UHGV virus genome: UHGV-0204798
Source: a virus
DNA length: 23,284 nucleotides
Direction: 5' to 3' (one strand)
Part shown: positions 6,751-8,475 of the stretch, in pieces
How the letters are laid out: every line of letters starts with the position of its first letter
Numbering within the stretch: position 1 is the first letter of the stretch
Notes under the pieces: generated by a model
Databases searched by the model: none
What the model was told of the DNA's origin: nothing
Seen by the model: only the letters and a program-made list of their open reading frames with translations
Program-made: the position numbers and the translations under genes

Positions 6751-6774
6751 CAAAAAACCCAGCCGAAGCTGGGT
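6751..6774 (-). terminator. Intrinsic terminator downstream of ant
   Basis: Hairpin ACCCAGC-CGAA-GCTGGGT (6757-6763 / 6768-6774) followed on the minus strand by a TTTTTTG run (plus 6751-6756 is CAAAAA). Sits about 20 nt after the ant stop and just upstream of the next gene's RBS. Confidence 0.6.
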
Positions 6775-6792
6775 CGTTGCGTTGGTTATCTG

Positions 6793-7719
6793 TCAGTAGT
6801 TATGTACTGAAGGAGGTAATTCTTTATTCTTAAGTCTCATCCATGCGGAAAGATTCGTTGGTCCGTCTGGCTCATTGATATCAACATCTCGTGTGTGGTT
6901 TATTAAAACGTCTCTCGCCATTCCGATAACATACGAGAATTCATGACCGTAGTCGTAGCATCTGCCGGAATAGTTCGATTGAATTTGTTTTAGCGCCGGA
7001 TACAGTTCGCGGAATAATGCCTGTGAACGGTTGGCATAATCCCATAACCATACAAGGCTGTTTGCTTCTTTTGCAGAAAGCTCGTTTGCTTTCTTCTCTT
7101 GTTTGCCGATGAACTCACCTTCAAGCGGAACTCGAGCTGCAAGTGACAGTGCTTCGGTAAACTGCTCCTCACTGATTTCTTTGTATGAACATCCAAAATG
7201 GGATTTCAGTGACGACCACATGGTAATCATCGCCTTCGCCTGTTTTTCTTTTGGCAGAGACTGACCGCGACTCATGACAAGTTGTTTAATGGCTTCCTGC
7301 TGTTCAGTGGTGATTTTGCCCGGCAACGCCTTTTTAGCTTTGCGTGGATTAACCACATGGCCTTTAGTCCAGTACTCATAGAGCACATCGTCACACTCTT
7401 CCTGATACTGGATTACCTTGTCGCGGATTTCAGGGCGGACTTTGTTAGGACTGATGGTTTGCAGCCAGCCAGCAAGTTTGCGAAGTGCCAAACAAATAAT
7501 CTCACGGCACTGTTCATCACCAGGAAGCTGCATTGTGATTTTCACAATGGAGGTTTTAAACCGTTGCTTTATTTTCGTAAACTGTGAAGCCCAATCCATA
7601 CCCATTCCCTCAACGATAGGTTTCATTGGGGTGTACGGTTCGCCGTTGTGATTGACAACATAAAGCTCTGCGCCGTGAAATGGCACGTTGATAGTAGATA
7701 CCGCGGTTGCTATACTCAT
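6793..7719 (-). CDS. ant: Phage antirepressor (Ant-like)
   Basis: Track ORF 6793-7773 starts with GTG; the likely start is ATG at 7717-7719 (MSIATAVSTINVPFHGAELYVV...) with AAGGA 9 nt upstream. N-terminal NVPFxGxELYVV...HNGEPYTPMKPIVEGMGMDW block recalled as typical of enterobacterial phage antirepressors. Lies directly downstream of an Arc-like gene and divergent from an Mnt-like gene. Confidence 0.65.
   Translation of the reverse strand: MSIATAVSTINVPFHGAELYVVNHNGEPYTPMKPIVEGMGMDWASQFTKIKQRFKTSIVKITMQLPGDEQCREIICLALRKLAGWLQTISPNKVRPEIRDKVIQYQEECDDVLYEYWTKGHVVNPRKAKKALPGKITTEQQEAIKQLVMSRGQSLPKEKQAKAMITMWSSLKSHFGCSYKEISEEQFTEALSLAARVPLEGEFIGKQEKKANELSAKEANSLVWLWDYANRSQALFRELYPALKQIQSNYSGRCYDYGHEFSYVIGMARDVLINHTRDVDINEPDGPTNLSAWMRLKNKELPPSVHNY
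7688..7716 (+). promoter_or_regulatory. Candidate sigma70 promoter firing antisense to ant (Psar-like)
   Basis: TTGATA (7688-7693), 17-nt spacer, TATACT (7711-7716). The -10 element overlaps the ant start codon on the opposite strand. Confidence 0.4.
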
Positions 7720-7722
7720 TTC

Positions 7723-7793
7723 GTTAGTTCCTTGGAAGTTACTGACATAGAAGCCCGATTTGTGTTCGCGCACTGTCGGGCTTCGCTATTTTT
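7723..7793 (+). ncRNA. Candidate ~70-nt antisense RNA covering the ant RBS (sar-like)
   Basis: Predicted start about 7 nt after the -10 element. Ends at a 9-bp hairpin GAAGCCCGA/TCGGGCTTC (7750-7758 / 7776-7784, 17-nt loop) followed by GCTATTTTT (T run 7789-7793). Complementary to the ant Shine-Dalgarno (plus 7729-7733) and the arc-ant intergenic region. Confidence 0.4.
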
Positions 7794-7959
7794 ATGTCCT
7801 AGCATTCTTCTCTCCAATCAGTCCGTACACTTTTCTCAATTGATAAACAAGTTCCGTGTTGAACTGTCGACACTCTTTTTCTCCATTTCTTTCAATCGCC
7901 TTCCTTACATCCTCTGGGAAACGAACCTTGCGTTGATACATGTCTTTTGCTTTTTCCAT
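7792..7959 (-). CDS. arc: Arc-like ribbon-helix-helix DNA-binding protein (55 aa), not in the ORF track
   Basis: Codon-by-codon reading of the minus strand from ATG (plus 7957-7959) to TAA (plus 7792-7794) gives MEKAKDMYQRKVRFPEDVRKAIERNGEKECRQFNTELVYQLRKVYGLIGEKNART. AAGGAG Shine-Dalgarno 5 nt upstream. Beta-strand (KVRFP) then two helices, the RHH pattern of P22 Arc. Sits immediately upstream of ant. Confidence 0.6.
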   Translation of the reverse strand: MEKAKDMYQRKVRFPEDVRKAIERNGEKECRQFNTELVYQLRKVYGLIGEKNART

Positions 7960-7976
7960 CTCCACTCCTTAAATAG

Positions 7977-7989
7977 CCTCACTGTGGGG
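7977..7989. promoter_or_regulatory. Operator-like imperfect palindrome CCTCACtGTGGGG
   Basis: 11 of 13 positions symmetric. Lies in the 5' leader of the leftward arc-ant transcript, between the -10 element and the arc Shine-Dalgarno. Confidence 0.45.
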
Positions 7990-7997
7990 TAGTCAAA

Positions 7998-8026
7998 ATT
8001 GTCACACCGTGCGTCATTGAAGTCAA
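7998..8026 (-). promoter_or_regulatory. Candidate leftward promoter for arc-ant (Pant-like)
   Basis: Minus strand reads TTGACT (plus 8021-8026), 17-nt spacer, TGn-GACAAT (plus 7998-8003). Its -35 overlaps the -35 of the divergent rightward promoter. Confidence 0.45.
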
Positions 8027-8045
8027 CCCCACCGTGGGGCATAAT
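8017..8045 (+). promoter_or_regulatory. Candidate rightward promoter for the Mnt-like gene
   Basis: TTGAAG (8017-8022), 17-nt spacer, CATAAT (8040-8045). The spacer contains the perfect palindrome at 8027-8039. Confidence 0.5.
8027..8039. promoter_or_regulatory. Operator-like perfect palindrome CCCCACcGTGGGG
   Basis: 13-bp site with perfect dyad symmetry around a central C, 50 bp centre-to-centre from the 7977-7989 site. The CCAC-N-GTGG core resembles the P22 mnt operator as I recall it. Confidence 0.5.
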
Positions 8046-8081
8046 TTACTTATTGTTAATTTTCCTGTTTGGACTAATGGT

Positions 8082-8456
8082 ATGAGTAGAGAAGACCCTC
8101 AACTTCGGATTAGGCTTCCTGTTGAATTAAAAAAAATAATTGAAGCGTCATCAAAACAAAATAATCGTTCTATGAATGCTGAGATTGTCACTCTGCTTGA
8201 GTTGGCGATTCGTGTTTGTCGTGATTTTGGGCCGGAGGATGGTCCTATCGTTCAGCAGTTTAAAGAACAACTAGATGCGATAAACAGAAAATATGATAAA
8301 ATCGAGCATGAAAAACTTATACCTCAACTTTTAGAAATCATAGAAAAACAGAAAAAACAAGTAGATAAACTTATTAGCATGGTTGAAAGATCAATTCCTC
8401 TTTCAGAGGAATATAAGCAGAAATATCTTGGTGATGACAACAAAAAACCCACCTGA
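8082..8456 (+). CDS. mnt: Mnt-like ribbon-helix-helix repressor with a C-terminal coiled-coil extension
   Basis: Track ORF 8034-8456 begins at a GTG inside the promoter; the in-frame ATG at 8082-8084 gives MSREDPQLRIRLPVELKKIIEASSKQNNRSMNAEIVTLLELAI..., which closely parallels my recollection of the P22 Mnt N-terminus (MARDDPHFNFRMPMEV...NGRSMNSELLQIV). The stop at 8454-8456 lies in the loop of the terminator hairpin. Confidence 0.6.
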   Translation: MSREDPQLRIRLPVELKKIIEASSKQNNRSMNAEIVTLLELAIRVCRDFGPEDGPIVQQFKEQLDAINRKYDKIEHEKLIPQLLEIIEKQKKQVDKLISMVERSIPLSEEYKQKYLGDDNKKPT

Positions 8457-8475
8457 CGGTGGGTTTTCATTTTTA
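8442..8475. terminator. Bidirectional intrinsic terminator between the Mnt-like gene and the tape measure gene
   Basis: Perfect 8-bp stem AACCCACC/GGTGGGTT (8446-8453 / 8458-8465) with loop TGAC, flanked by an A tract upstream and a T-rich run (TTTTCATTTTT) downstream on the plus strand. Confidence 0.65.

Follow-up and report, generated by a model that had tools for sequence, protein, structure and literature searches.

Background

The closest described systems to the locus reported here are the immunity I (immI) region of phage P22 and its relatives in other phages. The P22 immI is located between genes 16 and 9, a position that the preliminary description of the present DNA had given correctly; it is annotated as a divergent mnt gene, an arc-ant pair in the orientation of the late genes, a promoter (Psar) within ant, an antisense RNA of about 70 nt (sar) across the arc-ant spacer, and terminators at both ends. 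The epsilon34 genome paper (Villafane et al. 2008, PMC2629481) distinguished, across sixteen genomes, ten types of the 'ant moron' carried by P22-like late operons: in epsilon34, ST64T, CUS-3 and others, this is a variable, independently transcribed insert of the late operon that often contains ant, set among syntenic morphogenetic genes. In Edwardsiella myovirus Edno5, a region of the tail cluster was named ImmI and compared with that of P22 (PMC6372524), so that an immI in a myovirus tail cluster of this type is already in the literature. Beyond the Edno5 and epsilon34 papers, we found nothing specific on ant cassettes between tape-measure and baseplate genes.

Here we analyze a cassette at positions 6793-8456 of virus genome UHGV-0204798. 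We call the whole stretch of DNA analyzed, 23,284 nucleotides in length, the window. We are highly confident that the cassette is a complete, apparently intact P22-type immI module of the ant moron type. This confidence concerns its identity as an immI; we grade the mechanistic details lower. As such, the cassette is an ordinary element of an already described kind, and what we add to prior knowledge is tidy and unsurprising: a predicted sar-type RNA, a layout with three operators, and terminator joints with a common C-terminal pentapeptide.

An immI module in a contractile tail operon

Base by base, we compared the region with the P22 record, which annotates each feature of immI. The three open reading frames (ORFs) reported in the preliminary description are present at the coordinates claimed: ant at 6793-7719 on the minus strand (308 amino acids), an arc-like gene at 7792-7959 on the minus strand (55 amino acids) and an mnt-like gene at 8082-8456 on the plus strand (124 amino acids). 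RefSeq annotates the identical three frames in a 94%-identical copy of the cassette borne by a lambda-like prophage (locus L002). The annotated P22 layout is matched feature by feature, and the likeness extends to gene order and orientation relative to the late operon, to two small proteins of predicted ribbon-helix-helix (RHH) type in register with Mnt and Arc, to a predicted sar promoter in the first ant codons, to the distance between the predicted Pant and arc, to the centre of the Mnt operator and to an identical ant terminator. The two regions differ in that the window virion is contractile-tailed and not P22-like, that the Mnt-like protein of 124 amino acids has an unrelated C-terminal region, and that the arc-mnt spacer is 32 bp longer, with a third palindrome (O2) in a displaced predicted Pmnt. 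Furthermore, the P22 Arc and Mnt operators are unrelated to each other, whereas the three sites of the window share a CAC-N-GTG core, and the P22 genes sieA and orf59a are absent from the window cassette.

The window covers the late operon, presumably Q-antiterminated, of a lambdoid prophage whose contractile tail is Gofduovirus-like. In gene order, the cassette is preceded by genes for terminase, portal, MuF, DUF2213, capsid, neck terminator, DUF3383 sheath, tube, chaperone and an SLT tape-measure-like protein, and followed by genes for a Dit-like protein, a Pam3_gp18 plug, Baseplate_J, DUF2612 and fibres. One immediate neighbor, in the tape-measure position, encodes a 604-amino-acid SLT-domain protein (8525-10339), which matches Pfam SLT at 2e-20 and the PHROG family 'lytic tail protein' at 2e-191; the other (5920-6735) encodes a Dit-like baseplate protein and is itself followed by the plug and Baseplate_J genes. 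The proposed location between the tape measure gene and the baseplate genes thus holds; it is not unusual, however, as immI occupies this place in the nearest isolated myoviruses. These are Edwardsiella phages Edno5 and GF-2 (genus Gofduovirus), the nearest isolated relatives of the structural module, whose SLT protein is about 30% identical to that of the window. In both, mnt-like, arc-like and ant genes occupy the matching slot between the lytic tail protein and Dit-like genes; the alleles are different, with shorter Ant proteins (201 and 291 amino acids) and no DNA similarity to the window cassette. The closest copies of the cassette reside in E. coli lambda-like and TL-2011b-type phages.

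The 308-amino-acid product of ant contains both domains that define the antirepressor family, with scores far over the Pfam cut-offs (P22_AR_N, 7.1e-45; P22_AR_C, 2.9e-29), and matches the PHROG family 'anti-repressor Ant' (phrog_245) at 1.2e-96. Full-length identity to P22 Ant is 57% (E 2e-122), and the C-terminal 115 amino acids or so are nearly identical. The ant gene is co-oriented with the late genes. An NCBIfam scan of the three cassette proteins returned no useful match.

At the DNA level, ant is a recombinational mosaic across window positions 6752-7732. Segment 6752-7126 is 90% identical to P22 and 97% identical to locus L009; segment 6752-7350 lies within 97-98% alignments with L003 and L006 that continue from the backbone (5900-7350); segment 6802-7732 is 96% identical to L007 (E. 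coli A41); and an ant fragment in L006 matches segment 7395-7664 at 99.6% identity.

Both repressor genes expected of an immI are found: a small Arc-type RHH gene directly upstream of ant on the same strand, and a divergently transcribed RHH repressor of the Mnt type. The latter (8082-8456, plus strand) combines an N-terminal RHH domain with a helix-rich C-terminal region. It matches Pfam Arc at 30.6 bits (3.1e-7), above the 20.4 cut-off, and aligns from its first residue with residues 1-43 of P22 Mnt (33% identity, 74% positives), the structure of which (1MNT) is its top match among solved structures. Mnt residues Arg2 and Arg10 are retained; His6 is replaced by Gln and Asn8 by Arg. In the TL-2011b homologue of mnt (L001, about 6970-7062), we observed an apparent frameshift caused by one extra G after codon 9, and RefSeq annotates only a 113-amino-acid ORF from an internal ATG; the frameshift may reflect either a genuine inactivation or an error in sequencing.

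The 55-amino-acid Arc-like protein is the weakest of the three on its own score, although its gene (7792-7959, minus strand), the first of the arc-ant transcript, is real and conserved. It had been reported as missing from the ORF track of the window, and a size cut-off is the only cause. The protein has 119 database relatives with 66-98% identity, many called 'Arc family DNA-binding protein', from Escherichia, Klebsiella, Salmonella, Citrobacter, Enterobacter and others. An AAGGAG motif lies 5 nt 5' of the ATG. Taken alone, the protein matches Pfam Arc with a borderline 17.9 bits (E 0.0028), below the 20.4 cut-off, so that the Arc-like assignment does not stand on this score. It does stand on alignment and family: the protein is in register with P22 Arc at 30% identity (pairwise E 4e-5), it matches the PHROG 'Arc-like repressor' family (phrog_228) at 5e-6, and Pfam Arc is the sole family matched in 16 of 24 aligned members of its own family. 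Searched against solved structures, the profile of this family finds Arc as a weak match only (E 0.05-0.13). A phmmer search of PDB sequences with the single protein gave de novo designed proteins and a primase as top matches, which we judged spurious. Arc residues Gln9 and Arg13 are retained, and the two RHH proteins resemble each other in their predicted DNA-reading residues (Q-K-R for the Arc-like protein, Q-R-R for the Mnt-like one). Similarity to RHH repressors and antirepressors, on which the initial proposal was to stand or fall, is therefore present, with both P22_AR domains in Ant and a Pfam Arc match above cut-off in the Mnt-like protein.

A predicted antisense RNA of the sar type

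The preliminary description was sound as to genes and terminators; it overlooked a predicted sar-type RNA, its promoter, the operator palindromes and the role of the terminators as joints. The predicted Psar-like promoter (7688-7716, plus strand) reads TTGATA-17-TATACT with an upstream TG and 10 of 12 hexamer matches. It lies within ant codons 2-11, opposing ant, which is the location of the annotated P22 Psar. The eight ant alleles compared all share its -10 block, TTGCTATACT, without change, and the adjacent codons vary.

Downstream of this promoter, we predict a cis-antisense RNA of about 72 nt (7723-7794, plus strand) complementary to the ant ribosome-binding site. It consists of a 5' hairpin with an anti-Shine-Dalgarno sequence, followed by a terminator hairpin (7750-7784) and a U run. 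The two-hairpin shape is common to the P22 sar RNA, and the folding energies are close (-28.3 kcal/mol, z -4.9, against -29.5 kcal/mol, z -5.3, for P22 sar). To search for this element, we built a covariance model from ten alleles (P22, TL-2011b, GF-2, Edno5, four E. coli slot variants, and Salmonella- and Citrobacter-derived copies), leaving out the window allele, the lambda-like prophage copy L002 and the Klebsiella-type loci L013-L015. On both strands of the window, the model finds a single significant site, 7723-7794 on the plus strand (44.4 bits, E 4.6e-6); the next candidate scores 13.8 bits.

In an alignment of 13 distinct sar-like sequences, 85% of cells are base-paired, versus 30-50% when the partners are slid; 9 of 20 pairs have changed on both sides, and none of 500 shuffles reaches the observed covariation score, in an alignment that was itself fitted to the model, which favors the structure. 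Folded one by one, all sar-like alleles adopt two matching hairpins. An approach combining MAFFT and RNAalifold on seven sequences recovered the terminator hairpin only, because MAFFT misaligned the 5' hairpin, and was set aside in favor of the per-sequence folds and the covariance model. By its functional definition (a promoter in ant, a length of about 70 nt, coverage of the ribosome-binding site and two conserved hairpins), the predicted transcript would be a sar RNA.

With scores of 57-72 bits, the same model also detects sar-like RNAs in the Edwardsiella myoviruses and in cassettes where the effector is a Bro-N or ANT-domain protein instead of a P22-type Ant. The elements of Edno5 (L010, 7827-7899) and GF-2 (L011, 8156-8228), which score 67 and 72 bits, are listed in neither of these two annotated records; others are found near 5166-5301 in L013-L021. 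The annotated ant start of GF-2, which overlaps arc, has probably been called too far upstream.

Promoters and operator-like sites

The 122-bp spacer between the arc-like and mnt-like genes contains two predicted promoters arranged back to back, with overlapping -35 hexamers. Pant (8026-7998, minus strand; TTGACT-17-GACAAT, TG-extended) would drive arc-ant, and its distance from the arc start codon is within 1 bp of that of P22 Pant. Pmnt (8017-8045, plus strand) reads TTGAAG-17-CATAAT.

Three palindromes with a CAC-N-GTG core are centred at 7983, 8008 and 8033, that is, with a spacing of exactly 25 bp. The first, O1 (CCTCACTGTGGGG, 7977-7989), covers about +2 to +14 of the predicted Pant and, by comparison of register with the P22 annotation, is the positional equivalent of P22 Omnt; it is kept in relatives. 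The middle site (TGTCACACCGTGCGTCA, 8000-8016) lies within the Pant spacer, in the position of P22 Oarc. The third, O2 (CCCCACCGTGGGG, 8027-8039), lies within the Pmnt spacer. The 9 bp at its centre, CCACCGTGG, match the P22 Mnt operator centre exactly. In the whole 23-kb window, CACNGTG occurs four times (about five expected by chance), and three of the four occurrences lie in the spacer, at 7980, 8005 and 8030. By our own arithmetic, the chance of finding three such motifs in these 122 bp is of the order of 1e-6.

The three-site layout is kept in five other copies, from TL-2011b and of Klebsiella, Salmonella and Citrobacter derivation. In these copies, the middle site is invariant and the sequence between O1 and the middle site is variable. 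Other cassette alleles contain repeated motifs too, about three in number and particular to each allele, as expected for differing immunity specificities. Predicted consensus promoters and three conserved palindromes are found, from sequence alone, at positions matching P22 Omnt, Oarc and Pant. We tentatively assign O1 and O2, as candidate operators, to the Mnt-like protein, since both share the P22 Mnt operator centre and the protein keeps Arg2 and Arg10. The middle site may be assigned to the Arc-like protein, which keeps Gln9 and Arg13 of Arc, given the position of Oarc in P22.

Variable cargo between constant flanks

The cassette is mobile. Window positions 6752-8463 are 94% identical to the L002 copy, which lies between gpL and gpK of its lambda-like prophage, and phage TL-2011b contains a copy at 81% identity. 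The preliminary description had considered that the three genes might be an invariant core of the tail module in all relatives. This is refuted by E. coli genomes with 96-99% identical flanks, in which the slot between the SLT and Dit genes is occupied by other ant/arc/mnt alleles, a LexA-family allele, added Panacea-domain pairs or P63C genes. Among 15 full-length matches, three are devoid of an antirepressor gene in the slot, as judged from full annotation for TB354 and from feature summaries only for the two others; in sister prophage TB354, flanks that are 97-98% identical enclose no ant cassette. With predicted promoters and terminators of its own, and presence or absence between the same flanks, the cassette is a moron. 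As in the ant moron of P22-like phages, several alternative contents are found, here among the sister prophages compared. The two differ in their setting: the described morons are of podovirus type, between the ejection-protein genes and the tailspike gene, whereas the present one is of myovirus type, between the SLT gene and the baseplate genes.

Elsewhere in tail operons, the mnt/arc/sar control unit is found again, together with other effectors (Bro-N, ANT, P22_AR_C). In the Klebsiella-type relative L013 (4582-6273), which has a matching tail module, mnt/arc/ant are located between baseplate genes, just upstream of the sheath-initiator gene. A Panacea-domain protein and a 139-amino-acid hypothetical protein, resembling a toxin-antitoxin pair, are found in L004 (3280-4147), L007 (5116-5983) and L008 (3613-4480); this pair is an alternative or additional cargo in the SLT/baseplate slot.

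In E. coli A41 (L007, 4294-5103), the place of mnt is taken by a gene for a LexA-family protein, which diverges from a small ORF and ant; the product names listed for H101 and H102 suggest the same arrangement there. The LexA-family version suggests an SOS-responsive form of the antirepressor switch. This arrangement echoes the antirepressors of Gifsy-type prophages, which Lemire and colleagues reportedly described in PLoS Genet in 2011 as being under LexA control. As is proposed for the window unit, those antirepressors are governed by a dedicated repressor, act in trans to inactivate the repressors of prophages, and can link the induction of several of them. They are small unrelated proteins controlled by the host LexA, where the window unit would have phage RHH repressors and an antisense RNA.

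Compared with a phage collection by megablast, the whole window showed no close relative of its structural backbone, and only mobile pieces matched; the best match of the 20-kb backbone is Vibrio phage IKEMa6-1, at 70% over the sheath region (10828-13732). Positions 22332-23284 are 97-98% identical to the Rha region of Escherichia phages APC_JM3.2, JEP4 and Gally. Together, the matching Rha region and the unmatched backbone point to a prophage mosaic in which a Gofduovirus-like virion module is joined to a lambdoid part for regulation and lysis.

The cassette is exchanged freely among unrelated phages, so that Ant and the resident repressor need not match. The cassette might no longer be an immunity switch for this prophage but a hitch-hiking cargo or remnant, with an Ant that does not recognize the resident repressor and that acts, at most, on other prophages or superinfecting phages. 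Signs of decay in relatives agree with this explanation (an ant fragment in TW10590, the apparent mnt frameshift of TL-2011b, and a copy beside host genes in Citrobacter-derived contigs), as does a transcriptome study in which the mnt gene of Kapi1 is not expressed in lysogens (PMC12922286). In the window, however, the three ORFs are intact. The ribosome-binding sites of these ORFs, the terminator at either end, all three operator-like sites, and the promoter and hairpins of sar are likewise intact, and conserved, so that we regard an inactive cargo as unlikely here.

Terminators as module joints

The preliminary description had placed intrinsic terminators at 6751-6774 and 8442-8475, and our scan found hairpins close to both. 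The ant terminator (6746-6775, minus strand) is formed by a hairpin read from 6775 to 6756, followed by a T run. Its sequence, AAAAAACCCAGCCGAAGCTGGGT, is common to the annotated ant terminator of P22 and to the L002 copy. On the other side, a hairpin at 8444-8467 on the plus strand, with an A run on one side and a T run on the other, constitutes a two-way terminator (8439-8467). These elements are also the left and right joints of the module. The breakpoints fall exactly at the terminators: homology to the sister-prophage backbone extends as far as 6774 and is regained no earlier than 8439. Where unrelated cargo is joined in L004, L007 and L008, the 29 nt of the mnt terminator are 100% identical; the right joint is located at 8439-8467 in the window, at 4846-4874 in L003, at 5083-5114 in L007 and at 3583-3611 in L008.

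The mnt stop codon is located within the loop of the right hairpin, the left arm of which encodes the last residues of the protein, NKKPT. This explains why unrelated repressors, including a LexA-family one, all end with NKKPT, and since the terminator doubles as these codons, the recombination joint lies inside a coding sequence. We observed the right terminator as the last five codons of RHH proteins of 106 and 124 amino acids and of a 269-amino-acid LexA-family protein.

As two terminators lie across the path of late transcription (8467-8439, in minus-strand reading, and 6775-6756), the unit could be suspected of using these terminators, along with convergent transcription, chiefly to modulate late transcription into the baseplate genes and not to control immunity. 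For the tailspike gene, which lies downstream of the ant moron in P22, the epsilon34 paper raised a comparable idea (PMC2629481). We consider this highly improbable: sister prophages function with very different cargo or a single terminator in the slot, and an Ant protein with both antirepressor domains would be superfluous for such a role. In a sister prophage with matching structural genes, the early region is lambdoid (cIII, a CI-like repressor, cro, cII, nin genes, the Q antiterminator and lysis genes). The location of Q upstream of the structural operon would explain late read-through of the cassette terminators, as in P22; judging from this relative, late transcription presumably reads through them.

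Proposed mechanism

Several points weigh against a switch that works as in P22. Residues 45-124 of the Mnt-like protein, its C-terminal two thirds, have no sequence similarity to the P22 Mnt tetramerisation domain. An Rfam scan of 6500-8800 retrieved nothing relevant; in a narrow scan, the sar family RF00262 aligns at 7723-7787, in full length and in register, with only 15.6 bits (E 0.62), and the gathering score being 43, the window RNA is not a formal member of this family. The model itself works, giving 97.8 bits for P22's own sar, and is narrow. Promoter-like sites are no more abundant in the region than expected by chance (3 versus 3.2), so that our promoter calls rest on position and conservation and not on counts. 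Compared with P22, Pmnt is shifted by about 30 bp and O2 has no counterpart; regulation therefore need not equal that of P22. The repressor gene of the prophage itself lies beyond the window, and a CI/C2-type repressor is a candidate target of Ant by analogy. More generally, the switch is read from the DNA, with promoter activity, RNA expression, the pairing of proteins and sites, and the target of Ant being predicted. That the two RHH proteins form a toxin-antitoxin or plasmid-partition system and not ant repressors is barely conceivable and we rejected it: neither protein has an ATPase or toxin domain, the unit has no toxin gene, the 'partition protein ATPase' label is equally misleading in the RefSeq record of P22 Mnt, and gene order, operators and sar RNA fit immI.

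We retain the P22-type immI module and propose, by analogy with P22, that it may operate as follows. In a lysogen, the Mnt-like repressor made from Pmnt would bind CC(C/T)CAC-N-GTGGGG palindromes and silence arc-ant; since O1 covers the Pant start and O2 sits in Pmnt, it would probably also limit its own promoter. Upon infection or induction, a brief firing of Pant would yield the Arc-like protein and Ant, and the Arc-like protein would then turn Pant off, probably through the middle site in the Pant spacer. The antisense RNA of about 72 nt may pair with the ant ribosome-binding site, so that no Ant would be made from Pant transcripts or from late read-through transcripts. Once made, Ant would bind and inactivate CI/C2-type repressors, derepressing the phage's own or a co-resident lambdoid prophage. 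The flanking terminators may both insulate the unit and act as short shared sequences for exchange of the cassette, or part of it, among phages.

Two additional ideas are, taken jointly, doubtful enough to be offered only as speculation. The first is a rewired immI logic. Near-identical predicted DNA-reading residues would face three related operators exactly 25 bp apart, and the two repressors could compete for these sites or share them; the Mnt-like protein could also repress its own promoter directly through O2, which P22 lacks. The second is a plug-in regulator made of mnt, arc, sar and the terminator joints. This control unit appears to be exchanged at terminator hairpins between the late operons of myo-, sipho- and podoviruses, and to be coupled to varied effectors (P22-type Ant, Bro-N or ANT-domain) or repressors (RHH or LexA-family).

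Implications for prophage biology

The cassette leaves the current understanding of how such switches work unchanged. It bears on annotation, since the 55-amino-acid gene and the sar-like RNA are often unannotated or labelled 'hypothetical', and the Rfam sar model is too narrow for these relatives. It is a well-resolved example showing that the P22 immI switch, including its antisense RNA, is not restricted to P22-like podoviruses: immI is a portable cassette that is also encountered in Enterobacteriaceae, within the tail operons of prophages that are contractile-tailed or lambda-like. By analogy, an effect of the present cassette on co-resident prophages is plausible. Such cassettes can let one prophage derepress others, which bears on prophage induction, including that of Stx phages, which carry closely related ant genes.

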